Shown one piece after another: positions 8,283 through 64,000 of a stretch of DNA of 64,000 bases. Source of the stretch: an uncultured Thermoleophilia bacterium (GTDB taxonomy: Bacteria > Actinomycetota > Thermoleophilia > UBA2241); contig CAVPRQ010000020.1 in the NCBI GenBank assembly GCA_963707855.1, forward strand, positions 41,940 to 105,939, written 5' to 3'. The translations under genes were made by a program, and so were the position numbers. The notes beneath the pieces were generated by a model. It saw only the letters and a list, made by a program, of their open reading frames with translations, was not told the DNA's origin and ran no database searches. Position 1 is the stretch's first letter; every line of letters begins with the position of its first letter.

Positions 8283-8292
8283 ACGACGACTG

Positions 8293-15615: not shown

Positions 15616-15631
15616 AAGGAGCGAGGCGGAC

Positions 15632-42866: not shown

Positions 42867-42928
42867 TCGGCTGAAGCGGCGCGGCCTCGCATGTCGAGAT
42901 GATCGAGTGGCTCATCGCCCGTCGTGAC

Positions 42929-42972
42929 GGCTGGTGCGGGCGGGGCGGCCAACCGCCCCGCCCGCACCAGCC
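42929..42972 (+). terminator. 20-bp perfect hairpin after ilvC
   Basis: GGCTGGTGCGGGCGGGGCGG-CCAA-CCGCCCCGCCCGCACCAGCC. Confidence 0.6.
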
Positions 42973-43268
42973 GGCTCCGCCATCCCCGCTTGAATCGCCC
43001 GTCCTCCTCGCGTCGGCGAGGCCCGCCCTCCGGCCCCGCATCCGCTCGTCGCTGCGACGCGCCTTGGTCTCGCCCGCCTGAACCCGCGCCTCACCGAGCG
43101 CGATCGCGTCCGCCCGCATGCACGTTCGCGCACGCCCCGCCGAGCGGTGGTTCAATGGTTGTGACCGCGCGCACGGGTTCTCTAGAATGGCCCCTCTGCA
43201 TCTGCTACTCAGGGGCCTCGCCCGGGTCGGCGGCCCGGGTCCCAGGACAGGACGAAAGGACGACGACC

Positions 43269-44431: not shown

Positions 44432-44444
44432 GGGGGGTGACGTC

Positions 44445-46050
44445 ATGACCGAACAGAAGAGGGTCCTCGTCAAGGAGAAGCTCGCCCCCGAGGGCGTCAG
44501 GTTCCTCGAGGAGCAGGGCTTCGCCGTGGACATCGGCACCGAGTGGGACGCCGACGAGCTGCTGGCCCGCATCAAGGACTACCACGGCCTGATCATCCGC
44601 TCGGCGACCAAGGTCACCGCCGAGGTCATCCAGGCCGCCGACAAGCTGCAGGTGGTGGGCCGCGCCGGCGTCGGCGTCGACAACGTCGACGTCAAGGAGG
44701 CGACCAAGCGCGGCATCATCGTCGTCAACGCGCCGCAGAGCAACGTGCTCACCGCGGCCGAGCACACGGTGGCCCTCATGATGGCCTGCGCGCGCAACAT
44801 CCCGCAGGCCCACGCCGACCTCAAGGCCGGCAAGTGGGAGAAGGGCAAGTGGGGCAAGGGCGGCGTCGAGCTGCAGGACAAGGTGCTCGGCATCATCGGC
44901 CTCGGCCGCATCGGCTTTCTCGTCGCCGAGCGCGCCAGGGGCCTGAAGATGAAGGTGCTGGCCTACGACCCGTACGTGCCGGCCGAGAAGTTCCACGAAC
45001 TCGGGCTCGACCGCGCCGACTCGCCGAACCAGGTGTACCGCGAGGCCGACTTCATCACCGTCCACCTGCCCAAGAACGCCGAGACCATCGGCTTCGTCGA
45101 CGACGACGCCTTCGCCCAGATGAAGGACGGCGTGCGCGTCATCAACGTCGCCCGCGGCGGGATCATCGACGAGGAGGCGTGGGCGCGGGCGATCGAGAGC
45201 GGCAAGGTGGCCGCCTCGGCGGTCGACGTGTATCCGAAGGAGCCGACCACCGAGAGCCCGTTGTTCACGTACGACAGCGTGGTGTGCACGCCGCACCTCG
45301 GCGCCTCGACGGTGGAGGCGCAGCTGCGCGCCGGCACGATCATCGCCGAGCAGGTGGCCCTGGCGCTCAAGGGCCAGTTCGCGCCCAACGCCGTCAACAT
45401 CCCGCTGGTGCCCGGCGACGAGGCCGACGAGCTGATGCCGTATCTCGCGCTCTGCGAGATGCTCGGCAAGCTCATCGTGCAGGTCGCCGACGGTCCGGTC
45501 GACGGCCGTGGACATCACCTACGAGGGCGTCATCGGCCGTTACGACACGCGCATCCTCACGCTCGGCGTGTTGCAGGGCATGCTGGCCGGCAAGGTCGAG
45601 GGCGAGGTCAACTTCGTCAACGTGGCGGGCATCGCCGAGGAGCGCGGCATCAGCGCCAGGGAGATCAAGCAGCCGGCGGCGGTCGACTTCCTCAACGTGA
45701 TCACGGTGAGCGCGCGCAAGGCCGGCGAGCAGCTCGACGTGGCGGGCACGACGCTGGGCCCCGCCACCGGCCGCGGTTCGTCGGCATCTACGGTCACGAC
45801 ATCGACATCGAGCCGGTGCCGAACATGGTGTTCCTGCGCGCCGAGGCGCAGGTCCCGGGCATCCTGGGCACCATCGGCGCCAAACTGGGCGAGTTCGGCA
45901 TCAACATCTCGCAGGTGACGGTCGCGCCCACCGAAGCCAGGCGAGCCGGGAGTGATGGGGCTCGCCATCAGCCAGCCCATCAGCGACGACCAGCTTGCGC
46001 AGATCATCGCCGCCGCCGGTCTGCTCGACGCCAAGCGCGTGAAGCTGTAG
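44445..46050 (+). CDS. serA: D-3-phosphoglycerate dehydrogenase (long form with ASB and ACT domains), three frameshifts (about 45505, 45775 and 45945)
   Basis: ATG 44445 follows GAGGGGGG. ..GLIIRSATKVT..GRAGVGVDNVDV..GIIGLGRIGFLVA..VNVARGGIIDE..TPHLGASTVEAQ.. then ..ITYEGVIG.. / ..PRFVGIYGHDIDIEP..PGILGTIGAKLGEFGINISQ.. / ..LAISQPISDDQL..KRVKL-TAG. Confidence 0.92.
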
Positions 46051-46109
46051 GCCGAGAGGAGCGGACGCCCGACGGCGCGGGCCGCGGGCGCGACGTGACA
46101 GGCTGACGG

Positions 46110-46261: not shown

Positions 46262-47636
46262 ATGGCGCAGGCGATCGACGACCCCGGCCAGACCGACCTC
46301 GGGGAGGACTTCCTCGGCCACCTCTGGCCGCCGTTCACCCAGCTCCAGGGCCTGAGGCCCGTCATCATGGACCACGCCGAGGGCGCGCTCGTCTACGACA
46401 CCGAGGGCAACGAGTACATCGACGCCTTCGCCAGCCTGTGGACGGTCAACGTCGGCCACGGCCGCAGCGAGATCCACGACGCCATCAAGGCGCAGATGGA
46501 GAAGCTCGCGATCTACCACATCTTCGGGATCGCCAACGAGCCCACGATCAAGCTCGCCGCCAAGGTCGCCGCGCTGCTGCCGGGCGACCTCGACCACGTC
46601 TTCTTCACCCTCGGCGGCGGCGAGTCGGTCGAGACCGCCGTCAAGATGGCGCGCCAGTACCACCGCAACCGCGGCAACGGCACCAAGTACATGGTCCTCT
46701 TCCGCGACCGCGCCTACCACGGCACCACGATGACCTCGACGAGCGCCCAGGGGCTCCCCGTCAACCGGCAGAAGTTCGAGCCCCTGCTGCCCGGGTTCAT
46801 CAAGCTCGGCGCCCCGTACTGCTACCGCTGCGCCTGGCACAAGACCTACGGCGAGGACTGCCGCATGGAGTGTGCCCGCGTCGTCGAGGAGGAGATCGCC
46901 TTCTACGGCGCCGAGAACGTCGGCACCATGCTCGGCGAGACGATGATCGGCACCGGCGGCGTGATCCCGCCGCCGCCCGAGTACTGGCCGATGGTCTGCG
47001 AGACCTGCAAGGCCAGCGACGTCCTCGTCATCAACGACGAGGTGATCACCGGCTTCGGGCGCAGCGGCACCTGGTTCGGCTTTCAGCAGTTCGGCTCCGA
47101 CCCCGACCTCGTGACCCTGGCCAAGGGCCTCTCCTCGGGCTACCTGCCGCTCGGCGCCGTGGCCGCCCGCGAGCACGTCTTCGAGGCCTTCCTCGGCGAC
47201 GGCGAGCAAGGCGTTCATGAGCGGGGCCACCTACAACGGCCACCCGCTCTGCTCGGCCGCCGGCCTCGCCAACCTCGAGATCATCGAGCGCGAGAAGCTC
47301 GTCGAGCGCTGCGCCGAGGTCGGGCCCTACCTGCAGGAGGGCCTGCGCACCCTGCTCAGCCACCCGATCGTCGGCGACGTGCGCGGCGTCGGCCTGGTGG
47401 CCGGCATCGAGTACGTCTCCGACAAGGCGACGCGCGAGTGGTTCCCGCTCTCCGCGGGCGTCGCCGCGCGGATCCGCGACGAGGCCTTCCGGCGCGGCGT
47501 CTTCGTGCGCCTGCTCGGCGGCGGGCACGTCCACGCCGTCGCCCCGCCGTTCATCATCACCCGCGAGCAGATCGACACCATCGTGCGCGTGCTCGACGAG
47601 GCGATCGGCGTGGTCGAGAAGGAGCTCGGCTACTGA
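46262..47636 (+). CDS. class III (omega-type) PLP aminotransferase, frameshifted near 47210
   Basis: ATG follows GGAGGAA. ..DTEGNEYIDAFASLWTVNVGHGR..FFTLGGGESVETAVKMAR..RAYHGTT..LVINDEVITGFGRSGTWFGFQ..VTLAKGLSSGYLPLGAV.. then ORF 47217..47636: ..TYNGHPL..VGDVRGVGL.. Confidence 0.85.
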
Positions 47637-49470
47637 TGGGCGACCTGCTGCGCGTCGACCTTGACGACGGGGACGACCCGCGAGGAGAGCATCGCCGAGG
47701 AGCGCCTGCGCACGCTGCTCGGCGGCAAGGGCATCGGCGCGCGGATGCTCCTCGAGGAGGTCGGCCCCAAGGTCGACCCGCTGGGGCCGGAGAACAAGCT
47801 CATCTTCACGACCGGCCCCCTGAGCGGGACGCAGATGCCGGGCTCGAACCGCTACGGCGTCTTCTTCCTCAGCCCGCAGACCGGCGGCTACGGAGAGGCG
47901 TACGCCGGCGGCAACCTGGCGCCGCAGTTCGCCGGCACGGGCTACAAGGTGGTCGTCCTCGAGGGCCGCTCGCCGGCGCCGGTCTTCGTCGAGGTCGCCG
48001 AGGGGCGCGCCGCGCTGCACCCGGCCGCCGACCTCTGGGGCACCGACACCTACGCGGCCGAGGAGCAGCTCAAGGCGCGCGTCGGCGACCCCAAGGCGCA
48101 GGCCTGCGTGATCGGCCCCGCCGGCGAGAACCTGCTGCGCTTCGCCTGCATCGAGAACAACAAGTGGCGCAGCCTCGGACGCGGCGGCGCCGGCGCGGTG
48201 ATGGGCTCGAAGAACGTCAAGGGCGTCGTCTTTCACGGGGCGCGCAAGCCTGCGCTCGCGCGCCCCGACGCGTTGCGCGCGCTGATCCGCGAGATGGTCG
48301 CCGCCAGCGAGGACCATCCCACGGTGAACGCCTACAAGCGCATGGGCACCGTCCAGATGGTCCGCGTCACCAACGGCATGAACATGTTCCCGACGCGCTA
48401 CTGGACGCGGGGCCACCTCGACGACTTCGAGCCGCTCTCGGCCGAGACCATGCTCGCGACCTACCACGTGAAGAACACGACCTGCCCGCCCTGCTTCATC
48501 GCCTGCGGCAACCTCTGCCGGGTGCCGGACGACCACGCGACCCTCGCCGGCCTCGAGATCGAGGGGCCCGAGTTCGAGACGATCTACGCGTTCGGCGGCC
48601 TCTGCGAGATCGTCGACTTCGCCGAGGTCATGCGCCTCAACGACATCTGCGACCGCCTGGGCGTCGACACGATGACCGCCGGCAACCTCTGCGGGCTGGC
48701 CATCGAGGCCTCGCGCCGCGGGCTCATCGATCTCGAAGCTCGACTTCGGCGACGCCGACGGCGTCGCCGCCTTCCTTGAGATGATGGTGCGGCGCGAGGG
48801 TGTCGGCGACCTCTTCGCCGACGGCGTCCTGCGCGTCGAGGAGGAGATCCCCGAGCTCAAGGGGGTCGCCGTCCACGTCAAGGGCATGGAGCCGGCCGGC
48901 TACGACCCGCGCGTCTCCAAGGGCATGGCGCTCGGCTACATCACCTCGGCCCGCGGCGCCTGCCACCTGCGGGCCACGGTCATGAAGGCCGAGCTCAGCG
49001 GGATCATCCCGATCGACGCGGTCGAGGGCAAGGCGGCCATCTACGCCGACTGGGAGGACCGCTTCGCGATCCAGGACGCCCTCATCTACTGCCGCTTCTA
49101 CCGCGACTTCACGACCTGGCCCTTCCTCACGGCCGTCGTCAACGCCGCCGTGGGGACCGACTACGCCGAGGACGAGCTCAGGGCGCTCGGCGCGAGCATG
49201 ATCAGCGACTCGCACCTCTTCAACGAGCGGCGCGGCTTCGGGCTCGCGCAGGAGCGCCTGCCCGCCTGGGTCACGGAGCGGCCCATCGCCGACAAGGACG
49301 GCAAGGAGTCGCTGACCACGACGGCCGAGCTCGAGACCATGCTGCGCGAGTACTACGCCGTACGCGGCTGGGACGTACCCGGCCGGCTGAGCGGCGCGAA
49401 CGTGCGCGCCGGATCGCGGCGCAGTCGCCGCGACCGAGCACGGGGGATCGGGAGGAGGATGAGGGCATGA
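47636..49470 (+). CDS. aldehyde:ferredoxin oxidoreductase family enzyme, copy 2; frameshifts near 47660 and 48740
   Basis: ATG 47636 overlaps the aminotransferase stop (TGATG). MGDLLRVDL / TTGTTREESIAEERLRTLLGGKGIGARMLLEE..RYGVFFLSPQTGGYGEAYAGG..CPPCFIACGN..EGPEFETIYAFGGLC.. / ..GMEPAGYDPRVSKGMALGYITSARGACHLR.. Confidence 0.85.
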
Positions 49471-50823
49471 GCGGCACGGGTGGAGCGAGGGTCGAGCTCG
49501 CCGTGCCGTACGGCGACGGCGAGCTGCGCTTCTCGCTGCCCCGGGCCAACCTGGCCGGTGTGATCGAGGCCGGCGCCGGTACGGCTTGCACGCCGGTCGG
49601 CCCCGACGACGTCACCGGCCTGAAGCCGCCTCCGCCGCCGGCCCGACCCCGGCCGAGGAACAGGCCGAGATCCGGCGCGCCCTCGCGGAGCCGATCGGCG
49701 CGCCGCGCCTCTCCGAGCTCGCGGAGCGCGCCACCAGAGCCGTCATCGTCGTGAGCGACGTGACCCGGCCCTGCCCGTCGCACAAGTTCCTGCCCGCGCT
49801 GCTCGACGAGCTCCACGCGCTGCCCTCCGATGCCGTCTCGATCCTCTTCGCCCTGGGCAGCCACCGCGCCCACACGCCGGAAGAGCAGGCGCGTCTCGTC
49901 GGCGACGAGGTCGTCCGGAGGGGCGTACGGCTGCTCGATCCGGACCCGACGACTGCGTCCCGGCCGGAACCACGAGTCGGGGCACGCCTCTCTCCGTCTT
50001 CCGGCCTTATCTCGAGGCCGACCTGCGCGTCTGCACGGGCAATATCGACTACCACTACTTCGCGGGGTTCTCGGGCGGCGCCAAGGCGGTCGTCCCCGGC
50101 CTCTGCACCTACGACACGATCCGCGCCAATCACGGCATGATGCTGAGTCCGTCCGCGCGCGCCGGGATCCTCGACGGCAACCCGGTGCGCGAGGACATCG
50201 ACGAGGCCGGCGGCATCCTGGGTATCGACTTCATTCTCAACGTCGTGCTGGACGAGGAGAAGCGGATCGTCCACGCGGTCGCCGGCGACTGTCGTGCGGC
50301 GCACCGCGCCGGCGTCGCCCTGTACGACGCGCGCTGCGACCTGCGCGTCGACGCGGCGGCCGACGTCGTCGTCGCCTCCCCCGGGGGCGCGCCCAAGGAC
50401 ATCAACCTCTACCAGGCGCAGAAGACCCTCGACAACGTCGCCGGGGCCGTCCGTGACGGCGGCGTCATCATCCTCGTCGCCCGGTGCGGCGAAGGGCTCG
50501 GCAACGCGGTCTTCGAGCAGTGGATGGCGGAGATGGAGGAGCCGGACGACCTCGTGCAGCGGATCCGGCGCGAGTTCGTCCTCGGCGGGCACAAGGCGGC
50601 GGCGATCGCCGCGCTCCTGACGAGGGTCGACCTGTTCGTCGTGTCGGACCTGCCGCACGACATGGTGACGGGCATGCACATGACGCCGTTCGCCACCGTC
50701 GACGACGCCGTCGCGGCGGCGCTGGCGCGCTGCGGCGACGGCGCGCGTGTGCTGGTGGTGCCGCACGGGAACCGCGTGACGGCCCGGGACTGGACGCGTC
50801 ACACGAGATGGAGGCTGAGATGA
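49467..50823 (+). CDS. larA: LarA-like nickel-pincer-dependent racemase/epimerase (DUF2088), frameshifts near 49615 and 49950
   Basis: ATG 49467 follows GGGAGGAGG and overlaps the AOR stop (ATGA). ..VELAVPYGDGELRFSLP.. / ..IGAPRLSELAERATRAVIVVSDVTRPCPS..LFALGSHRAHT.. / ..TGNIDYHYFAGFSGGAKAVVPGL..NGMMLSP..GGAPKDINLYQAQK..HKAAAIA.. Confidence 0.8.
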
Positions 50824-51496
50824 GCGCCAAGCGTGGAGAGCAGCGCGTTGCCATGCAAACGCCGTTCGAGAACCCGGTATCGAGCCTGCCGACGACTGCG
50901 CAGAAGATCCTCGTGGCCGCCCGACGCCTGCTGATGGAGGGCGGCTACGGGTCGGTGACGCTCGAGAGGGTCGCCGCCGAGGCGGGCGTGAACAAGGCCT
51001 CGATCCGCTACAACTTCGGCAACAAAGCGGGCCTGGTCGGCGCGCTCGTCGACTTCATGCTGCACGAGGAGTTCGAACGCGACCTGGCGGCCTCCCGTCG
51101 ACGCCGCACAAGGACCTCGTCCATGCCCTGATCGATGGGAAGCGTCACATCATCGACGCGATGGACAACCTGCGTGGCTTCTTCGACATCCTCCCGCACG
51201 CCTTGCGCGACGACGATCTGCGCCACCGCATCGCGGCGTGCTATCCGTGGTGGGCAGAGCAGAACCTGATGCTGCTGGAGCTGGAGGCCTCCGGACCCGA
51301 GGGCAGGCCGCAGGTGCTGCGCGGCCTGGGGCGGCTGGTGAGCGCGGTGGTCGACGGCCTCTCGGTCCAGGCCGGCCTCGATGGCGACCAACACGACATG
51401 GACGCGCCGCTCAAGGCCCTTGAGTTCCTGCTCGATCGCGCCCTGCCGGACCTGGAGGGGCTGGCAGGGGCCGCAAGCACAGGTGAGCGGGACTGA
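50820..51496 (+). CDS. TetR/AcrR family transcriptional regulator, frameshifted near 51085
   Basis: ATG 50820 overlaps the larA stop (ATGA). ..TAQKILVAARRLLMEGGYGSVTLERVAAEAGVNKASIRYNFGNKAGLVGALV.. (HTH), then ORF 51161..51496. Confidence 0.8.
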
Positions 51497-51555
51497 CTTG
51501 GCCTGAACGGCCTCCCCGTCTCCGTGCGGCCGTCCAACGTCGACGTTCGCGCTGG

Positions 51556-53028
51556 TCACTCGCGCAAGCCGAGCTCCCGTTCCGCTTCGTCGATGATCGC
51601 TCTCAGCTTCTCGGGCACGCCTTCTGGCAGCGGCTCGGGCTGATGCGTCTCCAGGATCCGCCTGGCCTCTGCCACGGAGCGCTCGTAGATGCTGGTCGAC
51701 CCCGAGGCGGTCCAGTCCTCCCGGACCCTGCGGTCGATGAGCTTCGACTGCGACTGGCTACGCATGCCCTTGAACGTGTCGTCGTGCGAGAGGAAATCGC
51801 TGAAGGGCCCGATGTCGGCGATGACGTCGACCGAGAGGGTCTCGTCGTCGACGCGGATACCGGGGACGCAGTACTTGACCATGCGCGCGAACTCGGCGTC
51901 CATGACGAGCTGCGCGTAGTCGATGGTGACGCCCGACTCCAGCATCCCCAGCCCGTAGATCAGATTGGCTCCTGCCAACGCCGGTAGGAGGCTGGTGATC
52001 GTCTTCTCGTGGCCGGATTGGGCGTCTGCCACTTTGGAGTCGCCCTACGCCCCCGCGACCCAGCTGGGCAGGAGGTAGAACCGCGCCAGGCAGGCGACCC
52101 CGGCGCCGATCATGCCGCACTCGGGGCTGCCGACGGACGCGCTGGCGAAGCGCAGGTCCATGGCCGTCGTGGACGAGCCATAGATGACAGGCGTACCGCG
52201 GACCGTGAGTTGCGCGAGCGTGATCCCGGCGAGGACCTCGGCGTTGTGTGACACGAGCGTCCCCGCGAGATTGACCGGGGATGATCCTCCGGCCATCGCC
52301 ATCGACAGGACGTTGACGGGGATCCCGCCGCGGGCGCCCTCGATGATGATGCGGCAGCAGTCGGCGACGAGCTTGAGCGGGCTCACCGGGCAGGTCAGGA
52401 AGGAGAGGATCGGCCGCTGCCGCAGGCGTTCGTGGCCGCCGACGATCGCCGCCGCCATGTCGATCATCTTACGGGCGCAGAACCCTGACAGCGGGCCGAT
52501 GGTCGCGTGCTTCGTCGTGTTCGTGAAGATGGCCTCGGCGTTGTGCAGGGCCGCGGTGTCCTGAGGGACGTCATGGGCGCCGAGCGGGCGCTCGACGACG
52601 TCGATCTCGGGCAGCGCGTCGATGATCCGCGTGCAGTCGGCGACGTCCTGCTTGCGCGACTCGTGCAGCTCGCCCGTGTACGGGTCGACGACCTGGATGC
52701 CCTCGCCGAAGTTCGTGAAGCCGACACGGCCGTCCTCGAGCACCACGTCCTGCTCCGGAACACGTCCGCACATGACCACCTTGGGAGGCGCCGAGCGGAT
52801 CGCGTCCTCGACGACGTGCGGGGCGAGGCGTACCACCTTGCGTTCGCGGTCGACCCTGGCGCCCCCGCCCTCGAAGATCGCGAGGGCCTCGTCGTCCTCG
52901 ACGAAGACTCCCGTCTGTGACAGGACCTCGAGCGTCGCGAGGTGGATCTCCTGCAACTCGTCGGGGGTGAACACTTCGAGCCTGAAGCCGCCGCTCTTGC
53001 GCGCGCCCGCGCGGGGGTTGCGTCTCAT
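51556..53028 (-). CDS. mttB: trimethylamine:corrinoid methyltransferase MttB, pyrrolysine type (one in-frame UAG read-through)
   Basis: ORFs 52045..53028 and 51556..52032 share a frame and are separated only by TAG. ..[131 protein letters not shown].. No frameshifts. Confidence 0.9.
52045..52047 (-). other. in-frame UAG (predicted pyrrolysine codon) of mttB
   Basis: Minus strand reads ..GTC GCG GGG GCG TAG GGC GAC TCC AAA GTG.. The TAG aligns with Pyl in Methanosarcina MttB (..[20 protein letters not shown]..). Confidence 0.85.
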
Positions 53029-53666
53029 GTCGCGCCTCCGCCCAGCAGCGCGTCGATCTTCTTGACGCCGTCGTTGGCGTCCTCGGCGTAGGCGTCGGCG
53101 CCGATCTGGTCGGCCCAGCGCTGGGTGGCGGGAGCGCCGCCGACCACGGTCTTGAAGGAGAGGCCCTCCTCCTTGATCACCTTGATGACCTTCTTCTGCT
53201 CCTCCATCGTCGTCGTCAGGAGGGCGCTCATGCCGATGATGTCGGCGTTCCCCTCCTTGGCCTTGGCGATGAAGGTCTGGGCGGGGACGTCGCGGCCGAG
53301 GTCGGTGACCTCGTAGCCGTTGGCCTTGAGGTAGGCGATCACGATCGCCTTGCCGATGTCGTGCACGTCGCCCTGCACGGTGCCGATCACGACGCGTCCC
53401 TTGGTGGTCGCCGCGCCGGCCTCGAGGGCGGCGTTGGTGACCGCGGTCGCCCCCGCCATGGCGTCGGCGGCCATCATCAGCTCGGGGAGGAACATCTCGC
53501 CGCTCTCGAAGAGCTCGCCGACCTCCTGGATGCCGCGCACGAAGCCGTTCTGCATGATGTCGGCGGGGGTCATGCCCGCGGCCAAGGCACGCTTGGCGAT
53601 GTCTTCGGCGGCCGCACGGTCGGCGCCCACGATCGCCGCGCTGGCTTCCTGATAGATATCGGACAT
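53025..53666 (-). CDS. mttC: methyltransferase cognate corrinoid protein (MttC-like by adjacency)
   Basis: The ATG at 53666 is preceded by AGGAGG at good spacing. ..MFLPELMMAADAM..VIGTVQGDVHDIGKAIV.. (DxHxxG B12 motif) ..IIGMSALLTTTM..VVGGAP.. The stop overlaps the mttB start (ATGA). Confidence 0.85.
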   Translation of the reverse strand: MSDIYQEASAAIVGADRAAAEDIAKRALAAGMTPADIMQNGFVRGIQEVGELFESGEMFLPELMMAADAMAGATAVTNAALEAGAATTKGRVVIGTVQGDVHDIGKAIVIAYLKANGYEVTDLGRDVPAQTFIAKAKEGNADIIGMSALLTTTMEEQKKVIKVIKEEGLSFKTVVGGAPATQRWADQIGADAYAEDANDGVKKIDALLGGGAT

Positions 53667-53715
53667 GAGCATTGCCTCCTCGGGGCGGGATGTCGGATCG
53701 TCGTCCTGGGCCGTT

Positions 53716-54342
53716 CTACGCCACCAGCGCCTTGGCCTTGTCGACCGCGGCGGCGGCGTTGGCGCCGTAGCCGTCGGCGCCGATCTCGTCGGCGTAGGCC
53801 TGGGTCACCGGGGCGCCGCCGATCATCACGCGGACGGTCGCGCGCAGGCCGGCGTCCTTCAGGGCGGCGATCGTGGCCACCATCTTGGGCAGCGTCGTGG
53901 TGAGCAGGGCGCTCATGCCGATGATCTGGGCCTGGTGCTCGGCGACTGCGGCGACGAACTGGGCCGGGGTCACCCCGGTGCCGAGGTTGACGACCTCGAA
54001 GCCGGCGCCGGCGAGCATCATCCCGACGAGGTTCTTGCCGATGTCGTGCAGGTCGCCCTCGACGGTGCCGATGACCACCGTGCCGAGGCTCATCGAGTCG
54101 CCCGCGGCCATATGCGGCCGGAGGAGGTCGAGGGCGCCCTGCATGGTGCGCGCGCTGAGCAGCACCTCGGGGATGAAGCAGTCGCCGGAGCGCATGCGCT
54201 CGCCGACCACCTCCATGCCGGGCAGGAGCGCGCCCTCGAGGATCTCGCGCGCGCTGGCGCCGCTCGCGAGGAGCGCGGTGGTGAGGGCGTTCACGGTGCC
54301 CGCGTCGCCCTCGATCAAAGCCTGCTTGAGCTGGTCTTTCAC
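53716..54342 (-). CDS. mtbC: methyltransferase cognate corrinoid protein (MtbC-like by adjacency)
   Basis: GTG start follows GGGAG. ..CFIPEVLLSARTM..VIGTVEGDLHDIGKNLV..IIGMSALLTTTLP..MIGGAPVTQAYADEIGADGY.. Confidence 0.85.
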   Translation of the reverse strand: MKDQLKQALIEGDAGTVNALTTALLASGASAREILEGALLPGMEVVGERMRSGDCFIPEVLLSARTMQGALDLLRPHMAAGDSMSLGTVVIGTVEGDLHDIGKNLVGMMLAGAGFEVVNLGTGVTPAQFVAAVAEHQAQIIGMSALLTTTLPKMVATIAALKDAGLRATVRVMIGGAPVTQAYADEIGADGYGANAAAAVDKAKALVA

Positions 54343-54394
54343 GAATGGCTCCCTTGTGTGGCGGGGCGCCCGCAGTGGGCGTCGAGCTCCGCCG

Positions 54395-55790
54395 TCAGTT
54401 CAGTCCCGTCCGCTCCTTGAAACGCTCGACGCAGTTGATCGGCACGTCGAGCACCCGGGCGATGTTGAACTTGGCCTCGATGAGGTTCGCCTGCCACGGG
54501 TGACTGATGGCGTAGCTGTGGATGCGGCCGAAGCCGTGCTCGCTGCGGATGTCGGTCATCACCGCCACGTCGGAGAGGTCGAACGGCGTCACGCCGAGCT
54601 TGTCGGCGACGTACTGCTTGGCCTCCTTGAGGCGCATTCCGCGGGTCATCTGCATTCGGGCCACGAGATCTCCCCCGGCCCGGATACCGCCCATGCCCGC
54701 TGCCTGCGCGTGAGCGTTGTGCATCCCGTGAGGGTCGCCCGAGCCCACCTACAAGCCGTCCAGGCGCAGAAGGTCGACGCAGGCCTTGGCGCTCCGGCAG
54801 GAGGCGTCGCCCGGCGGGTGCACGAACATCGGCACCCCGCCGACGCCCATGCCGACGTTCATGTGCACGGGGATCTCGGCGACGTCCATGCAGGGCTTCA
54901 CGATGGCGATCGCGCGGGCCATGTTCCAGGCGCAGCTCTTGCCGGTGTTGACGTTGACGACCGGCCCGTACATCGTCGCCCCGGCCTTCTGCACCACCTT
55001 CATCTGCTCGAGAGGCCACATGCCGGCGAGCCGCTTGCCGTCGTACTCGAGCTGGCCGTGCATGCCGAGCACGAACTCGCCCGCCATGCCGAGCTGGACG
55101 CCCATGTCGGGGTACTTCTTGCGGATGATCTCGGTCGCCCGCAGGGTGGCCCAGAACTCGGGGTCGCCGGAGGCGCCGGTGGTGTCGAAGTCGATCGCGT
55201 CGGCGCCGGCCTCCCACATCGCGTCGGCCATGCGGACGGCGTCCGAGACGGCCATCTCGGCGGCCTCCTCGGCGGCCGCGCGCGCCTCGGGGATCTTGCC
55301 CTCGGGCAGGAGCGTCGACCAGTTCTCGCAGGGGCCGTCGTCCTTGGCGTAGAGGCCGAGGTTGGGCATGATGCCGTACTGCATCGGTGCGATCGTGCAG
55401 AGCAGGGCGTCGTGGAGGCGCTGCGCCTCGTAGGGCATGATCGTGCGGATGACCTTGAGCGAGTAGTCGCCGGGGCAGAGCTCGAGGAGGTCGGCGCCCA
55501 TCCACTGCTCGTAGGACTGCATGTCCTGGGTGCGCGTGGCGTGCGTCTTCATGCCGCTGCCGTCGCAGCTGAGGACGATCTCGTCGCCGAGGTCGACGCC
55601 GACGAAGCGCGCCGGGCTGGCGTAGATGTCGAGCGAGGTGCTCCTGCTCGTCGGCGGTGAGGGGCTCGACCTTGGCGCGCTTCACCGCCTGGGCGACGCC
55701 GTCCTCGATGTCGGCGCGGAGCTCGCTCCGCGTCATGCGGGCGATCGAGCCGTCGCCCATGCGCGTGGGTATGCGTGTCTCTCCTGTCAA
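54395..55790 (-). CDS. mtbB: dimethylamine:corrinoid methyltransferase MtbB, pyrrolysine type (one in-frame UAG) with one frameshift near 55628
   Basis: TTG 55790 follows GGAGGGAAGG. (M)TGETRIPTRMGDGSIARMTRSEL.. / ..MQYGIMPNLGLYAKDDGP..IDFDTTGASGD..GMAGEFVLGMHGQLEYDGKRLAGMWP..NVGMGVGGVPM..LRLDGL-TAG-VGSGDPHGM..AGGDLVARMQMTRGMRLKEAKQYVADKLGV.. This is colinear with Methanosarcina MtbB. Confidence 0.88.
54749..54751 (-). other. in-frame UAG (predicted pyrrolysine codon) of mtbB
   Basis: Minus strand reads ..GAC GGC TTG TAG GTG GGC TCG GGC GAC CCT.. The TAG aligns with ..VDGI-O-IGVGDPLGM.. of archaeal MtbB. Confidence 0.85.
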
Positions 55791-56479: not shown

Positions 56480-57990
56480 ATGTCAGAGCACAGCCCGACT
56501 CCTGACCTCCGCACCCTCACCCCACGGAGGGCCGAGCAGCCGCTCTCCGCCGGCCGGCTCGCCCGGCTGCGGCAGGCCACCCTCACGATCCTCGAAGAGG
56601 TCGGTGTCCACGTACCTTCTGCGAAGGCGCGCGAGATCTTCCACGGGCACGGGGGCGTCGTCGGCGACGACGGCGTCGTGAGACTGCCCGCTGACCTCGT
56701 TGAGCGCGCGATGGCGTCTGCACCGCGCTCGTTCGTGCTCGGTGGGCGAGAGCCCCGCCTCGACCTGCTGCTCGATGGAACACGCAGCTACGTCTGTACG
56801 ACAGGGGTCGGCGTGCACGTCGTCGACCCGGTCGACGGCCAGCTGCGGCCCTCGCGGGCCGAGGACGTCGCTCGCCTGGCGCGGGTGTGCGACGGGCTGC
56901 CGCTGGTCGCCTTCTACTGGCCACTGGTGAGCGCCCAGGACCACGGCCTTGCGGCGCCGCTGGCCGAGTGCCACGCCGGCCTGACGAACACCGTCAAGCA
57001 CGTCCGCGGCGGCACGACCGTGCGGCCGGCGCTCGCGCGCTACGTGGTCGAGATGGCGCAGGCCGTGGCCGGCGGAGCCGACGGCTGCCGCCGCCGGCCA
57101 CCCGTCTGCGCCAACATCTGCACGATCAGCCCGCTGGCGCACGACGAACACGGGCTCGACTGCGCCTTGACCTACGCGGCCGCAGGCATCCCCGTCAGCT
57201 TCATGGCGATGACCACGATGGGCTCGGTCGCGCCTGCCAGCGTCGTCGGCGCCCTGGTGCAGGGAGACGCCGAGGTGGTCAGCGGCATGGTGCTGCTGCA
57301 GCTCGCCTTCCCGGGGACGCCAGTCATGCACTCGGTGCTGATCTCGCTGATGGACCCGGCGACCGGCGGCTACATCAGCGAGCTGGCGCCGCCGGTCGAC
57401 TGGCTCGCGACGCAGGTCGCGCACGCGTGGGGCGTCCCCTGTCTTGGAGGCGGCGTCGTGATCGGCGACGAAGCCGGCACCGGATGGGTCTCCGGGCGGA
57501 GAGCCGGCGAGGGCGCCCTGCTCGCCCACCTCGCGGGCAGCGAGCTCTGCGGCTTCATCGGCCTGGCCGGCGGGGCCATGGTGCAGTACCCCGAGCTGCT
57601 CGTGCTCGGCTGCGAGGCGCTCGAACTGGCCGCGGAGACCATGGCGGCGATGGAGTTCGACGAGGCCGACCTCGCCCTCGACGTCATCCGCGAGGTCGGA
57701 CCGCGCGGTCACTACCTCAAGCAGCGCCACACGCGTGAGCACCTGCGCGCCCAATCGTGTGCCAGTGTGGGCGCGCCTGCGCGGGCCCACCCCCGACGGT
57801 GCGGCGCTCGCTGACCTCGCGACGCACGCCTCGCGCGGTCTGCACCCGGACGCCGCCCGCGCCGCCGCCCTCGAGGAGTACCAACGGCTTGAGCGCGACC
57901 ACCATCCGGCGCCACTGCCCGCCGACGTCAGGCGCGAGCTCGACGAGCTGCTTGCGCGCGGCCGACCGCGAGGCGGCCTATCTGACATGA
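56480..57990 (+). CDS. non-pyrrolysine MttB-superfamily methyltransferase (paralog A), frameshifts near 57745 and 57958
   Basis: ..LTILEEVGVHVPSAKAREIF..ECHAGLTNTVKHVRGG..RRRPPVCANICTISPLAHDEHGLDCAL..FMAMTTMGSVAPASVVGALVQGDAEVVSGMVL.. At the Pyl-aligned site it reads ..VPCLGGGVVIGDEAG.. (Val, no stop). Confidence 0.85.
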
Positions 57991-58151
57991 GCGTCCGGGC
58001 CGCAAGGCGCCCGTAGCAACACACTAGGCACGGGGCCCACCGGAGCATTCGCTTCGACCGTGTACTTCACACCCGGTTCTGTCCGGAGCCGCGTCTCTCA
58101 CTGGGCGCATGGCGACCTGACCTGCTCGAGGACTCTCAAAGAGGGGGGAAG

Positions 58152-59846
58152 ATGAAGCCTGCGGACATCGTTCTCACCAATGCGCGCGTATACACAGTCG
58201 ACCAGAGTCAACCCTGGGCGCAGGTAGTGGCCGTCGATGGTGAGAGCATCGTCTACGTGGGGACTCAGAAGGACCCCACGTGGGAGAGGTTCATCGGCCC
58301 GGGGACGAACGTGTCCGACATGCACGGACGGCTCGTCCTGCCGGGCATGATCGATAGCCACACCCATCCGCGCCTCGTCGCCATGAGTTCGTGGCGTGTG
58401 ACGTTGCCTTGGACCTACGACAAGACCGAACTGTTCGCCTGGCTGGGGCAATACGCCGCAGCCCACTCCAGGGATGAGGTGCCGTTCATCTGGGCCAACT
58501 ACTACCCGACCGCGATGTTTGGCGACGAGGGTCCGCACAAGGAGGACCTTGACGCCTACGTCTCCGACCGCCCGGTGCTGATCGTGGAGTTCACGGGCCA
58601 TTCCTGCCTCGTGAACTCCAAGATGCTCGAGCTCATGGACGTCGACAAGAACACGCCCGACCCCGAGCCGGGCGTGGCCGTCTTCGTGCGCGACGCCGAG
58701 GGCAACGCCACCGGGTGGGTGAAGGAAGGGGCTTGGCGCTACTTTGCAGGCCACATGTATGCGGCCCTCAACTGGGCGCCGGCGCAGGAGGTGGCCCCCG
58801 AGCTCCTCAACGGATTCCTTGAGTTCCTCTCCTCCAGGGGTGTGTGCGCTCTGTTCGACGCGGGGGGCAGCGATGGCTTCATGGGCAGTGAGGACACCTA
58901 CAAGGCGTTGGCCGAGCTGGACCGTCGAGGCGAGTTGCACATGTACTGCGAAGGCTCGAACCGGTTCCTTGGCGTGGACGATCTGCCCGCGAAGATCGCC
59001 GAACTGCGGAACTGGCAAACCAAGTACGGCAGCAGGCACATCAGCCTGCGCACCATGAAGTTCTTCCTCGACGGGATGACCGAGACGGGGACGGGCGCGG
59101 TACTCGAGCCGCATAGCAACGACCCTGGGGGCACCGACTATGGCCCCCTCTACATGAGCGAGGACGACCTCGTTGCCTGCATGCTCGCCCTCAACGAGGA
59201 GAACCTCGACCTGCACATCCATGTGACCGGTGACCGCGCCTTCCGCACTGCCTGCAACGCCGTCGAGAGGGCACAGCAGCAGCTGGGCGACGCCTGGAGG
59301 GTCCAGGTCACACTCGCGCACTGCATGCTAGTCGACCCCGCCGACATGCCACGGGTCGCCAAGCTGGGCATCATCGTCAACTGGTCTCCACACTGGTCGG
59401 GCGGCTACTTCGGCACGGAGTCGGCCGAGTGGCTGGGCCAGGATCGCTTCAACAGGATGTACCAGTTCAACCCGATCATCAGCACCGGCGGCATTGTCGC
59501 CCTCAGCAGCGATGTCGCCAGCCAGTATGAGGCGCCGCGTGCCGACCCCTTCCTCGGACTTCAGGTCGGCCACACGCGCATCGATCCTTGGTGGCCTATG
59601 GGCGTTCGCGAACCTGCGTCAGGCTGCCTGGCGCTGAGCGACCTGGTCAAGGGCTATACGCTCAACGGCGCCATCCAGCTGCGAAGGGCCGAGACGATGG
59701 GCTCGATCGAGGTCGGCAAGCTCGCGAACATGGTCATCCTCAACAAGGATCTCTTCAGCCTTGCGGGCGACCAGATCCCGTCTGCGCAGCCCGAGGCAGT
59801 ACTGTTCGAGGGCAGGCTCGTTCACGGCACGCTCTTGCTTTCGTGA
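58152..59846 (+). CDS. amidohydrolase-3 (YtcJ-like) family metal-dependent hydrolase
   Basis: ATG follows AGAGGGGGGAAG. ..ADIVLTNARVYTVD..GRLVLPGMIDSHTHP..FFLDGMTETGTGA..DLHIHVTGDRA..TLAHCMLV..VALSSDV..GSIEVGKLANMVILNKD.. Intact 564 aa, with visibly lower GC than the surroundings. Confidence 0.82.
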   Translation: MKPADIVLTNARVYTVDQSQPWAQVVAVDGESIVYVGTQKDPTWERFIGPGTNVSDMHGRLVLPGMIDSHTHPRLVAMSSWRVTLPWTYDKTELFAWLGQYAAAHSRDEVPFIWANYYPTAMFGDEGPHKEDLDAYVSDRPVLIVEFTGHSCLVNSKMLELMDVDKNTPDPEPGVAVFVRDAEGNATGWVKEGAWRYFAGHMYAALNWAPAQEVAPELLNGFLEFLSSRGVCALFDAGGSDGFMGSEDTYKALAELDRRGELHMYCEGSNRFLGVDDLPAKIAELRNWQTKYGSRHISLRTMKFFLDGMTETGTGAVLEPHSNDPGGTDYGPLYMSEDDLVACMLALNEENLDLHIHVTGDRAFRTACNAVERAQQQLGDAWRVQVTLAHCMLVDPADMPRVAKLGIIVNWSPHWSGGYFGTESAEWLGQDRFNRMYQFNPIISTGGIVALSSDVASQYEAPRADPFLGLQVGHTRIDPWWPMGVREPASGCLALSDLVKGYTLNGAIQLRRAETMGSIEVGKLANMVILNKDLFSLAGDQIPSAQPEAVLFEGRLVHGTLLLS

Positions 59847-60552
59847 CGTGCAGCAAGTGCTCAGTCACACGAGCCGGTTTGAGGTGTGTTCGCCAGGACG
59901 TGACACGAACCCCGAGGAGCCCCTTGGCGGTGGCCACGGCCTCGATCGCGTCCTCGGCGTAGCCGTCGGCGCCGATCTCGTCGGCCCAGGCGCGGGTCGT
60001 CGGGGCGCCGCCGATCATCACCTTGACCGAGTCCCGCAGGCCGGCGGCCTTGAGGGCCTCGATCGTCTTCTGCTGGTTGGGCATCGTCGTCGTCAGCAGG
60101 GCGGTGAGGAGGAGGAGGTCGGGGGAGAGCTCGCGGCACTTCGCGACGAAGGTCTCGACGGGGACGTCGCAGCCCACGTCGGTGACCGTGAAGCCGGCGG
60201 CGCTGAGCATGCTGCAGACGATCGTCTTGCCGATCTCGTGGATGTCGCCGGCGACGGTGCCGGCGACGGCGACCCCGAGCGAGCGGCTCGCCCCGCCGGA
60301 GGCGTCGAGGGCGGGCTCAAGGACGGCGACCGCGGCCTTCATCGCCTCGGCCCCCTGGACGAGCTCGGGGAGGAAGAACTCGCCGCGGGCGAAGAGGTCG
60401 CCGACCTCCTCGATGCCCTTGACGAAGCCGAGGTCGAGGATGTCGACCGCGGCAAGGCCGGCGTCGAGGCCCTGCTGGGCGAGCTCGGCCGCGAGCTCGG
60501 CCTCGCCGTCGAGCACGGTCTGCTTCATCTGGGCGTAGAGATCGTTGCTCAC
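59755..60552 (-). CDS. third corrinoid (B12-binding) protein; true 3' end probably near 59860-59900
   Basis: MSNDLYAQMKQTVLDG..FFLPELVQGAEAM..VAGTVAGDIHEIGKTIV..LLLLTALLTTTMP..MIGGAPTTRAWADEIGADGYAEDAIEAVATAKGLLG. After that the ORF runs on as non-family sequence and overlaps the amidohydrolase 3' end. Confidence 0.8.
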   Translation of the reverse strand: MSNDLYAQMKQTVLDGEAELAAELAQQGLDAGLAAVDILDLGFVKGIEEVGDLFARGEFFLPELVQGAEAMKAAVAVLEPALDASGGASRSLGVAVAGTVAGDIHEIGKTIVCSMLSAAGFTVTDVGCDVPVETFVAKCRELSPDLLLLTALLTTTMPNQQKTIEALKAAGLRDSVKVMIGGAPTTRAWADEIGADGYAEDAIEAVATAKGLLGVRVTSWRTHLKPARVTEHLLHVTKARACRERACPRTVLPRAAQTGSGRPQG

Positions 60553-60648
60553 GTCAGCCTCCTCCTGAAGAAGTCCTCTGCTGCTCTACGGACCGGGCAC
60601 CTGTCGTCGTGAGCTCCCTCCGACGATGAACACCGGGCGGTCACGGCG

Positions 60649-62169
60649 TCACTCCCGATCTGCCGACGCCAGCAGCTGTTCAAGCTCCTGGAGCACGTCT
60701 GCGGGCAGTGGTTCGGGGTGATGCTCCTGTTCGATGCGCCGGTAGTCAGCGAAAGCGGTCGCTCTCACGACGGATGAATCGAGGCCAGCGCTCGCTCTCG
60801 TCGCCAACCTGTCGATCGAATCGGCGTCGGAGAGGGACCCGTGAGCATCTGGAGACCTCGGCCTGAGCCACGCCGGGAGTCGCATCTCCCGCATGCGCTG
60901 CCGAGTGTGCCTGTGCTTCAGGAAGTGACCGCGCGGCCCCACCTCGCGGATCACGTCCAGAGCGAAGTCTGTCGCCTCGAACGTGAATGCGCCCAACTCG
61001 CCCACTGCCTCGAGCAGCACCTCATGCTGGAGCATCACCTGTTCGGGGAAGAGCACGGTGGCTGCGCCGGTGAGGCCGAGGTACCCACAGATCTCGCTTC
61101 CCGACAACATGGCTTCGGCAGCGCCAAGGCCGGCGCGTCGCCCGGCCAGCCAGCCGATCCCACCGTCGTCGCTGCTCAGGCTGCCGCCGGACAGACTGGG
61201 CACCCCCCAGGCGTGCGCCAGCTCGGCGGCCATCCAGTGGAGAGGCAGCGGCACCTCGCTCACGTAGCCACCGGAGTAGGGGTCCATAAGCGAGACCAGG
61301 ACGGAATGGAAGACGGGGCAGCCGGGCGCGGCAAGCTGCGCCAGCACCATGCCACTGACCACCTCGGCATCGCCTTGCACCAGCGCTCCGACCGCGGTGG
61401 CCGGTGCGACAGATCCCATCGTCGTCATCGCCATGAAGCTGAACGGGATGCCGGCTTCGGCGTAGATCAGGGCGCAGTCGAGGCCGTTCTCATCGTGCGC
61501 GAGAGGGCTGATGGTGCAGATATTGCCGCAGATGGGCGGGCGACGACGGCGAGACGCCTCGTCGCCGGCCACCACCGTCGCCATCTCGACGACGTAGCGC
61601 GCCAGCTCTGGCCGCATCGTGGTGGCGCCGCGCACGTGCTTGAGGGTGTTGGTCAACCCGGCGTGGCACTCGTGCAGCGGCGCCGTCGTCCCGTGATCCT
61701 GGGCGCTCACAGGAGGCCAGAGGAAGGCGATCAGTGGCAGCGCGTCGCAGACGCGGGCGAACGTGGCCACATCCGCCTTGCGTGACGCGCGCAGCTTGCG
61801 GGTCTCGGTGTCGACCACGTGGACGCCGACTCCCTCCGTCGCCACGTAGCTGTGACTGCCGTCAAGCGTCAGGTCGAATCGCTCCTCTCGACCGGCCAGA
61901 CAGAAGGTCCTCGGTGCCGTGGACATCGCACGCTCGACGACGTCTCGCGGGATGCGCACGACTTGGTCGTCTCCTACCTTGGCGCCGTTGTCGGCGAAGA
62001 TCGTCCGCGCATTGGCCGAGGGCACGTGGACCCCCACCTCTTCGAGAATGAGCATGCTGGCTTCTCGGAGCGACGTCAGCTGACCCTCGTCGAAGACCCC
62101 ATCCGTTCGTCGAGGCGTGAGCGGCAGGATGTCGGGAGTCGGGCTGTAGTCTGTCGGGCTCTTCGGCAC
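60649..62169 (-). CDS. non-pyrrolysine MttB-superfamily methyltransferase (paralog B), intact
   Basis: GTG 62169 follows AGGAGA. ..LILEEVGVHVPSANARTIF..ECHAGLTNTLKHVRGA..RRRPPICGNICTISPLAHDENGLDCAL..FMAMTTMGSVAPATAVGALVQGDAEVVSGMVL.. The Pyl-aligned site reads ..VPSLSGGSLSSDDGG.. (Leu). Confidence 0.88.
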   Translation of the reverse strand: MPKSPTDYSPTPDILPLTPRRTDGVFDEGQLTSLREASMLILEEVGVHVPSANARTIFADNGAKVGDDQVVRIPRDVVERAMSTAPRTFCLAGREERFDLTLDGSHSYVATEGVGVHVVDTETRKLRASRKADVATFARVCDALPLIAFLWPPVSAQDHGTTAPLHECHAGLTNTLKHVRGATTMRPELARYVVEMATVVAGDEASRRRRPPICGNICTISPLAHDENGLDCALIYAEAGIPFSFMAMTTMGSVAPATAVGALVQGDAEVVSGMVLAQLAAPGCPVFHSVLVSLMDPYSGGYVSEVPLPLHWMAAELAHAWGVPSLSGGSLSSDDGGIGWLAGRRAGLGAAEAMLSGSEICGYLGLTGAATVLFPEQVMLQHEVLLEAVGELGAFTFEATDFALDVIREVGPRGHFLKHRHTRQRMREMRLPAWLRPRSPDAHGSLSDADSIDRLATRASAGLDSSVVRATAFADYRRIEQEHHPEPLPADVLQELEQLLASADRE

Positions 62170-62330
62170 CTCAGTCTCCTGTCTCTGATTGGCTGGTATC
62201 GAGATCCCTCGTCGATGCATCGTCGTTCGCGGTCGACGTCAAGCCGCAAGTACTGCGAGGCCGGCTCGCGAAGCGCGAGTCTCCGGAGTTCGCGTCTGCC
62301 GTCGCGTCATCGCAGCGTCGATGGCGCAGG

Positions 62331-63709
62331 TCAGGCGCCGATCATCTTCGCGATCAGGTCGGCGCGCCGCGCCGGGCGCCCCTTGGCCTCCTCGACCCGG
62401 TCGGCGCTCGCCATCATGCGCAGGGCGAGGTTGACGCCGATCCAGCGCAGCGGCTCGGGCTCCCAGGCCTTCGAGCGGTGGTTCACCCAGGGCAGCCGCG
62501 GTCAGCGGCGTGTCCTCACCGCGGATCAGGTCGCACAGCGTGCGGCCGGCGAGGTTGGTCGTCGAGACCCCGTCGCCGACGTAGGCGCCGGCCCAGGCGT
62601 TCCCGGTCGCGCGCTCGAGGCCGACCGACGAGTACCAGTCGCGGCTCGCCGCGATCGCCCCGCCCCAGCGGTGGCTGACGCGGAAGGGGCCGATCTGCGG
62701 GAAGAGCTCGCGGGTCAGCTCGCGGAGGTGGTCCTGGACCCGGGGGTTGAGCGTGAACTCCTCGCTCAGCCTGGACTCGTAGTGATAGGGCGCCCCGCGG
62801 CCGCCGATGGCGATGCGGCCGTCGTCGGTGCGGCAGGCGTAGAAGATGAGGTGGCGCAGGTCGCCGAAGACCTCGTGGCCCTTCCAGCCGAGCGCCTCCC
62901 AGGTCTCTTCGGAGAGCGGCTCGGTGGCGATCATCAGCGAGTAGATCGGCACGAGGTCGCGCTCGTGGCCGGGGAGCTCGGGCGTGAACGCCTCGGTGGC
63001 GCGCACGACGACCTCGGCCCTCACGGTGCCGAAGGGCGTCTCGGCGGCGTGCGGGGCGATCGCGGTCACGGGGGTGCGCTCGTAGATCGGCACGCCGAGG
63101 CGCTCGACGACCGTCGGCGAGGCCGCGCGCCAGGCGCGCCGGGTCGACGGCGGCGCCGTGCGGGGTGTAGACGGCGCCCAGGCAGCCGGCGACCTTCACG
63201 CGCGCGCTCGCCTCGCGCGCCCCGAGGAGCACGTAGTCGTCCTCGCCGAAGCCCCAGGAGCGCTCGTACTCGACTTCTGGGCGGCGCGCAGCAGCTGCAC
63301 CGGGTTGGTCGCCAGGCTGAGCTGGCCGTCGAGGTGGAAGCGCGCCTCGATGCCCTCCTCGTCGACCACGCGGGCGATCTCGTAGACCGTGTCGAAGAGG
63401 GCGCGCTGCTGGTCGATCACGGCCTGGCGGCCGCTCCACCGGGCGGCGCGCGCGCGGGAGCCCGGGGAAGTAGGTGTGACACCAGCCCCCGTTGCGTCCC
63501 GAGCCGCCGTAGCCGGCGATCTCGCGCTCGAGGACGGCGACGCGCAGGTGCGGGTCGGCCTTCTTCAGGTAGTAGGCCGTCCAGAGGCCGGTGTAGCCGG
63601 CGCCGACGATCGCGACGTCGACGTCGGTCGGCCCCTCGAGCGCGGGGCGCGGGGCAAGCTCCCCGGGCAGAAGGTCGAGCCACATGCTGCGTGAGCGGTA
63701 GTCTTCCAT
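62331..63709 (-). CDS. FAD-dependent oxidoreductase (DAO/PuuB/sarcosine-oxidase-like family), at least four frameshifts
   Basis: ATG 63709 follows GGAGG. MEDYRSRSMWLD..DVDVAIVGAGYTGLWTAYYL..GYGGSGRNGGW.. / ..QRALFDTVYEIARVVDEEGIEARFHLDGQLSLA.. / ..VEYERSWGFGEDDYVLL.. / ..VPIYERTPVTAI..LVPIYSLMIATEPL..GGRGAPYHY..SHRWGGAIAASRDW.. / ..PWVNHRSKAWEPEPLRW..AKMIGA. Confidence 0.75.
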
Positions 63710-63781
63710 CCCCGAAACCCCTCCTTGTGTGAGGCCTCGCCCCGGCACTCGCACCCCTTGACAGGCCTTCCGACATGTGCT

Positions 63782-63818
63782 TGTTGTACGTATAACAGAG
63801 GCCTCCTGGCGTTGTCTA
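63782..63818 (-). promoter_or_regulatory. candidate promoter with overlapping 16-bp palindromic operator upstream of the FAD-oxidoreductase/MttB-B operon
   Basis: Minus strand has TAGACA, an 18-nt spacer and TATACG. The palindrome TGTTgTACGTAtAACA (63782-63797, one mismatched pair) overlaps the -10. It sits in an AT-richer patch about 75 nt upstream of the ATG. Confidence 0.35.
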
Positions 63819-64000
63819 GAGTGGTCTCTTGGAGTGGGGAGGTTGCTGAGAGTGGCGAAGGAGGGGACGGTCGGCGAGTCGCTTGCGGAGCGACTCGAAG
63901 CCGCCGTCATCGAATGCCAAGACGGCAGAGCGCTGTCGCGAGGGGACTCAGGAAGAGCCGGAGGCGCCGGAGCGACCAGGGGCGACAGCCGCAGTGACGA

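Follow-up and report, generated by a model that had tools for sequence, protein, structure and literature searches.

In-frame UAG in the mtbB gene of an uncultured Thermoleophilia bacterium: a very likely pyrrolysine codon in the Actinomycetota

The mtbB gene examined here lies on a stretch of 64,000 nucleotides (contig CAVPRQ010000020.1, positions 41,940 to 105,939 of the forward strand, assembly GCA_963707855.1) from an uncultured Thermoleophilia bacterium of the Actinomycetota. This whole stretch, hereafter the window, has a GC content of about 70% throughout. The gene, of the dimethylamine methyltransferase family, is read from the minus strand and contains an in-frame UAG codon. The presence of pyrrolysine in MtbB is textbook knowledge, and the principle has been known since 2002. 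The catalytic residue of MtmB, MtbB and MttB is pyrrolysine, to which the methylamine binds and by which it is activated, so that its methyl group can pass to a corrinoid protein in the Co(I) state. The segments of the gene and the elements placed on it are listed below, GC3 being the GC content at third codon positions and dN/dS the ratio of nonsynonymous to synonymous substitution rates.

55636..55790, minus strand: 5' segment of mtbB, about 52 codons, in a frame that differs from the rest of the gene
55631..55638 (near 55635), minus strand: insertion of one nucleotide (frameshift) relative to the four closest relatives, from the MAFFT alignment
54752..55630, minus strand: main segment of mtbB, down to the codon before the UAG, from the PF09505 and TIGR02368 alignments; GC3 0.98
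54749..54751, minus strand: in-frame UAG, predicted to encode pyrrolysine at position 347 of the repaired protein of 464 residues
54395..54748, minus strand: 3' segment of mtbB, 117 codons closed by a TGA stop (54395-54397), from the open frame and dN/dS
54652..54751, minus strand: hit of Rfam RF02509 (PYLIS_2, model of the pyrrolysine insertion sequence of mtbB) at 68.7 bits, above its gathering score of 36
54657..54682, minus strand: conserved hairpin, 70-95 nucleotides after the U of the UAG, from RNAalifold and pair counts over 62 distinct sequences

The UAG has its T at 54751 and its AG at 54750-54749. Two open reading frames (ORFs), 54749..55552 and 54395..54748, are joined at this codon and contiguous in one frame, and the translation runs from ACVDLLRLDGL across the stop into VGSGDPHGMHNAHAQAAGMGGIRAGGDLVARM; the first-pass annotation had described these ORFs and quoted their translation, and both match the sequence exactly. 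With O for pyrrolysine, the predicted peptide spanning the UAG would read LDGL-O-VGSGDPHGMHNAHAQAAGMGGIR. The motifs GDPxGM and AGDLVARM are present 3' of the codon. At the other end of the gene, the start is a TTG codon at 55790-55788 with GGAGGG five nucleotides upstream, and the frame-1 translation of the 5' segment, MTGETRIPTRMGDGSIARM..EQEHL, matches the N-termini of the relatives P0001 and P0005. The first 52 codons are out of frame through the insertion, which the MAFFT alignment places in the context CACCTCGCTCGAC in the window, against CACCT-GCTCGAC in the relative L049. Deletion of any single base within 55631-55638 gives a frame of 464 codons in which the TAG is codon 347.

For the profile searches the frame-repaired protein was used, with one base removed and an X at the TAG. 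The PF09505 model (Dimeth_Pyl) matched with 538 bits (cut-off 25, E 2e-161) over its positions 7-462 of 463, and the NCBI equivalog model TIGR02368 with 405.6 bits, against a cut-off of 369.1, over its positions 6-465 of 466. Since the PF09505 match is a single stretch and TIGR02368 is above its cut-off, the MtbB homology is not broken after the TAG; a break at this point would have spoken against the first-pass annotation, and with both models one hidden Markov model alignment crosses the codon. The UAG of the RF02509 model itself, its positions 1-3, falls on 54751-54749, which ties the site to the known pyrrolysine position of the mtbB family, where it had first been placed. Apart from the integrity of the frame, every sequence criterion places the gene in the MtbB family. 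A sequence search of the PDB returned no MtbB relative with a solved structure.

We then scanned both strands of the 64 kb for stop codons flanked in the same frame by 80 codons free of other stops on each side and by a coding-type GC signature on both sides (GC3 > 0.85, GC content at second positions < 0.6 and below that at first positions). Among 368 TAG trinucleotides two passed, the mtbB site and a site at 52045..52047 in mttB, the gene for trimethylamine:corrinoid methyltransferase in the same operon. One of 1458 TGA trinucleotides passed, and this one is a gene boundary; none of the 23 TAA did. The coding signal around these two TAG sites exceeds chance. The claim that two methyltransferase genes carry such a codon within 3 kb is borne out, the mttB TAG being 2.7 kb away. 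An in-frame TGA at 47634, considered as a selenocysteine codon, was rejected: it is where an aminotransferase gene stops, and an AOR gene with a broken frame comes next.

The TAG is strictly kept among relatives. A database search gave 2183 homologues; nearly all of the best 120, among which the closest is 97% identical, are 336-346 residues long and have ..LDGL as their C-terminal end, which indicates that the same TAG was taken as the stop by the gene callers. The window's frameshift recurs in none of those inspected. Species-representative genomes were also scanned and yielded 79 mtbB loci with 84 MtbB copies, almost all of these loci being labelled as metagenome-assembled genomes (MAGs) of Thermoleophilia or Actinomycetota (UBA2241, MAGs with MFD labels, and others from Stordalen palsa, bog and fen, isolate bog_752 among them). 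The copies fall into several paralogue clades with 56-98% protein identity to that of the window, and all 84 have TAG at this codon. In the same way, the TAG of mttB is kept in 25 of the 25 copies found, 24 in related loci and the window's own. Within the clade of the window, 52 of 53 members have an uninterrupted frame of 115-124 codons behind the TAG. The dN/dS of this tail against the window is about 0.15 (range 0.07-0.28), compared to 0.17-0.51 for the 270 codons before the TAG, so the tail is at least as constrained. An open tail under purifying selection points to its translation in the frame of the TAG.

The mtbB of locus L004 is 97.3% identical in nucleotides to that of the window, and the adjacent larA-like gene just 77.7% (L004 9980-12760 against window 49504-55781); both corrinoid genes and mttB, which in the window follow mtbB, are absent from L004 between mtbB and the larA-like gene. 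This pattern could mean that mtbB was exchanged recently or that the locus was rearranged.

The genes for pyrrolysine synthesis and decoding were sought in these genomes. The PylSc of Desulfitobacterium hafniense (a query 100% identical to database entry P0121) had no tblastn match in the window or in the 79 loci with their 10-kb flanks, and ARAGORN found no tRNA-Pyl in the same 79 loci and flanks. A first database search with PylSc returned Bacillota alone. The search was widened with a library of representatives at 50% identity, filtered by high-GC amino-acid composition, one of which was re-used as query. It uncovered a large high-GC clade of PylSc, some members of which are named "Thermoleophilia bacterium" or "Actinobacteria bacterium" at NCBI. 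One of its genes, P0497 (TIGR02367, 314 bits), is on contig_19728 (1,137,818 bp) of the Thermoleophilia MAG MFD00032.bin.2.59, the contig that also bears the mtbB paralogue L065, and stands directly beside another split mtbB. A second, P0413, is in GCA_041648235.1, the MAG of the mtbB loci L015 and L066. Locus L083 has pylSc (TIGR02367, 307 bits), pylSn (TIGR03912, 117 bits), a tRNA-Pyl(CUA) of 73 nucleotides and a fragment of pylC. The pattern of this tRNA matched at least 120 metagenome contigs; in the 80 examined, the median GC content is 0.71 and ARAGORN reports a tRNA-Pyl(CUA) in every one. The metagenome contig L107 contains pylB (443 bits), pylC (334), pylD (199) and pylSc (301) together with pylT and pylSn, all above the curated cut-offs, and shares the synteny of amidase gene and pylSc with the loci from Thermoleophilia MAGs. 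Judged by these gene models, the lineage has a complete pyrrolysine system, and the source organism itself, by extension from its relatives, presumably has the machinery as well.

The TIGR02367 scores of pylSc across the lineage are 301-314 bits. The gene overlaps the end of a gene for N-acetylmuramoyl-L-alanine amidase (L080 8919-10858; L081 and L082; L083 8919-13302; L107 2610-10888), and in L080, L081 and L083, the three loci retrieved in full, it stands in a housekeeping neighbourhood with gltX and tldD/pmbA, to which cysS is added in L083 only. Where pylSn is present (L083, L107), pylSc is convergent to it, and a gene with a Germane domain separates the two from pylBCD and pylT, completely represented in L107 and by the pylC fragment in L083. 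At 11137-12830 of L080, which is from a Thermoleophilia MAG, pylSc adjoins a TAG-split mtbB (344 and 86 residues) and an MttB fragment. Within L083 13500-20858, the GC content drops from about 70% to about 30% at about 13.5 kb, which cuts pylC, and this public contig looks chimeric.

In the window, mtbB heads an operon of four genes, mtbB, two corrinoid protein genes and mttB, of which the last three are the following.

53716..54342, minus strand: corrinoid (B12-binding) protein gene adjoining mtbB; PF02310, PF02607 and MtgC/MtbC-type NCBIfam corrinoid models
53025..53672, minus strand: second corrinoid (B12-binding) protein gene; TIGR02370 (pyl_corrinoid) at 221.1 bits, above its cut-off of 215.3
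51556..53028, minus strand: mttB, trimethylamine:corrinoid methyltransferase; TIGR02369 at 734.6 bits, above its cut-off of 525

The in-frame UAG of mttB, at 52045-52047, lies within a match to Rfam PYLIS_3 (RF02510) at 51948..52047. The corrinoid gene that adjoins mtbB ends at a TAG (53716-53718), and the next in-frame stop is 556 codons further on. The frame past this TAG enters mttB in phase, and amber suppression there would yield a long aberrant fusion.

We consider it very likely that the mtbB UAG of this Thermoleophilia bacterium is decoded as pyrrolysine, with the machinery encoded elsewhere in the genome and the frameshift being artefactual. The UAG at 54751..54749 would be read by the amber-suppressor tRNA-Pyl(CUA), charged by a split synthetase PylSn/PylSc with pyrrolysine made by PylB, PylC and PylD, whose genes would also lie outside the window. 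In the resulting full-length MtbB of 464 residues, pyrrolysine would bind and activate its predicted substrate, dimethylamine, and the methyl group would be handed to a corrinoid protein in its Co(I) state, the products of the adjacent corrinoid genes being the likely acceptors. From there it would presumably pass to tetrahydrofolate and not to coenzyme M; no methylcorrinoid:tetrahydrofolate methyltransferase was identified beside the operon. A hairpin 70-95 nucleotides downstream of the codon may aid the insertion.

Several observations weigh against this reading. The window contains no tRNA-Pyl by ARAGORN, Rfam, blastn-short or pattern search, nor any other tRNA, and no pylS, pylB, pylC or pylD is found among its ORFs. 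The mtbB gene as assembled is frameshifted and cannot yield a full-length protein. The UAG serves as ordinary stop for at least five other genes of the window, including the adjoining corrinoid gene, and the back-up in-frame stops of the genes ending in TAG are 41-556 codons away, distances at which efficient suppression would be costly. Since UAG still terminates these genes, the insertion of pyrrolysine must compete with termination, as it also does in other pyrrolysine-using bacteria.

The frameshift leads to the best surviving alternative, namely that the insertion near 55635 is real, that MtbB is no longer made and that the TAG is inherited in a dead gene. The window indeed has the extra base and its four closest relatives lack it, a difference that would suit an assembly error as well, and the insertion is outside a homopolymer, the classic site of long-read errors. 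On the other side, it is a single indel in 1.4 kb of a gene with no other damage, a GC3 of 0.98 and 97% identity to its counterpart in L004, and similar single indels of mtbB occur in other assemblies of the lineage (L004, P0107, P0110, P0111). Further genes in the same 64 kb are frame-broken: guaA, ilvD, ilvB, serA, Fe-ADH, a threonine aldolase-like gene, a class-V and a class-III aminotransferase gene, AOR and larA, the breaks lying in the regions 5298-8318, 15575-16771, 18929-20200, 27011-31049, 42903-46106, 46262-49470 and 49463-50823. In guaA the GATase and synthetase domains are in different frames, ilvB is broken and then runs in frame into ilvN, and Fe-ADH is spread over three frames. 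Breaks of essential biosynthetic genes (guaA, ilvD, ilvB, serA), at about one per 4-5 kb, indicate indel errors of a long-read assembly and not decay. The frameshift in mtbB is by this comparison probably an assembly artefact, and a pseudogene appears unlikely. The first-pass annotation had overlooked this upstream frameshift; its reading of the TAG, the family and a code expansion agrees with the conservation of TAG in all 84 copies. A programmed +1 frameshift at 55635 was rejected because no relative has the extra base.

Alternatively, the gene could be split, the UAG acting as a terminator and the tail of 117 codons being made from the GTG that follows it, with two peptides assembling without pyrrolysine. 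The codon after the TAG is indeed GTG in the window and most relatives, and UAG is a working stop elsewhere in the window. In L045, L066, L067 and L072, however, an alanine codon (GCN) takes this place and offers no start, which argues against separate initiation of the tail, and no Shine-Dalgarno-like sequence precedes the GTG. Moreover, the stop is never TGA or TAA in any copy, though TGA greatly outnumbers the other stops here, a full pyl cassette is retained in the lineage, one genome has its pylSc directly beside a split mtbB, and the residue at this site of the methyltransferases is established as catalytic. With these observations, a split gene is very improbable.

Still less credit goes to a read-through in which near-cognate decoding or an ordinary suppressor puts one of the standard amino acids at the UAG. 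It would fit with the absence of pyl genes from the window, but pylSc is present in relatives whose mtbB is orthologous, tRNA-Pyl(CUA) and pylBCD occur in the lineage, and the strict retention of the TAG is sensible only for a special residue. That the TAG stands in error for a sense codon, through sequencing or assembly, was rejected and is practically negligible: the assembly is visibly error-prone, but its visible errors are indels and not substitutions, and they cannot explain a TAG common to 84 independent homologues over many different assemblies from short and long reads; the mttB TAG is likewise kept in all 25 copies.

As preferred reading, then, the UAG is decoded as pyrrolysine, and we looked at the RNA downstream of it. 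The RF02509 match comes mostly from coding-sequence conservation and includes six non-standard pairs, and a single-sequence fold of the region gave a minimum free energy z-score of -1.15. Helix 1 of the PYLIS model, with pairing in 69% of cells and several positions where most sequences are unpaired, was rejected as unsupported on this percentage and the z-score. Helix 2, with 92% of cells paired, corresponds to the hairpin at 54657..54682, which was predicted independently by RNAalifold. In the 62 sequences, which cover several Thermoleophilia paralogue clades of mtbB, compensatory changes occur at three of its pairs, each joining two third-codon positions: pair 78-87 (CG 46, GC 13, UG 3, none unpaired), pair 75-90 (CG 19, AU 18, GC 13, UA 1, 11 unpaired) and pair 72-93 (GC 29, AU 12, GU 4, CG 1, 16 unpaired). 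Judged by eye, G-C/C-G switches of pair 78-87 are found within at least four clades, and the independent events in helix 2 were put, also by eye, at four to five. The evidence for a constraint on this hairpin at the RNA level, as read from covariation, is real but modest.

We know of no function demonstrated for any mtbB PYLIS. A hairpin at 70 nucleotides is too distant to contact the ribosome that decodes the UAG, and it seems doubtful, if worth retaining as a candidate, that it is a working bacterial read-through element favouring pyrrolysine insertion at the mtbB UAG. In the source genome UAG ends roughly one gene in seven; if it does work in this way, the hairpin would be a testable answer to how bacteria separate a pyrrolysine UAG from a stop UAG. 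The RF02509 family stems from a prediction by Theil Have et al. 2013 (PMC3639795).

Two further observations were made elsewhere in the window. A second methyltransferase island at 56480-63900 contains two genes of the MttB superfamily without TAG, which reach 260-271 bits on TIGR02369, below its cut-off of 525, together with genes for a corrinoid protein, an amidohydrolase and a flavin adenine dinucleotide (FAD) oxidoreductase, the last of them broken in frame; the island probably serves the demethylation of quaternary amines. An M-box magnesium riboswitch (RF00380, 144.9 bits) is at 3891-4062 on the minus strand, upstream of an MgtE-N/CBS gene and a gene for an Nramp-type transporter.

The mtbB of the window resembles those of Methanosarcina and of Bacillota (Desulfitobacterium, Acetohalobium) in its matches to full-length models, in the position of the UAG and in the motifs downstream of it, and likewise has a cognate corrinoid gene adjoining it and a linked mttB of the pyrrolysine type. 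Unlike in these, the host is a Thermoleophilia actinobacterium of 70% GC and the copy is frameshifted. The pyl genes of the relatives comprise the same components as the D. hafniense-type cassette (pylT-pylSc-pylB-pylC-pylD ... pylSn), and their PylSc is 52-55% identical to that of D. hafniense. Unlike the compact cassette of Bacillota, the order in the lineage is pylB-pylC-pylD-pylT, the Germane-domain gene and pylSn, with pylSc on the opposite strand. As regards RF02509, the match in the window starts at the UAG and the second hairpin covaries, whereas the first hairpin of the model is poorly supported here.

Closer cases are in print. Pyrrolysine-encoding mtbB and mttB were described in Actinobacteriota MAGs of the genus Bog-752 from Stordalen Mire, with expression of these genes reported in the field (Ellenbogen et al. 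2023, PMC10805028), and PylRS was found in two Actinobacteria (PMC9630628); the actinobacterial case dates from 2022-2023. The Bog-752 mtbB belongs to the same gene clade, the MtbB of L016 (isolate bog_752) being 79% identical to that of the window with the same TAG. Unlike it, the window represents a different species-level lineage, whose nearest relative, L004, is that close over mtbB only. Two corrinoid genes separate mtbB from mttB in the window, whereas the two are directly adjacent in many relatives. Among the papers searched, none links pyrrolysine decoding to Thermoleophilia by name. Since the principle was long established and the actinobacterial case is published, the present locus adds breadth and no new mechanism. 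Three points go beyond the literature found, all of them about the lineage and not specific to the window: how widely the trait is spread in Thermoleophilia, the unusual position in which pylSc lies, and the hairpin with its covariation.

The 79 species-representative loci and the at least 120 metagenome contigs with the lineage tRNA-Pyl suggest that the trait is widespread in Thermoleophilia. For the organism itself, a soil actinobacterium, the TAG makes it likely that the 22nd amino acid is employed and that dimethylamine and trimethylamine are consumed. Because standard gene callers cut mtbB into two pieces at this codon, such organisms would be undercounted as methylamine consumers, and methylamine consumers of this kind compete with methylotrophic methanogens.

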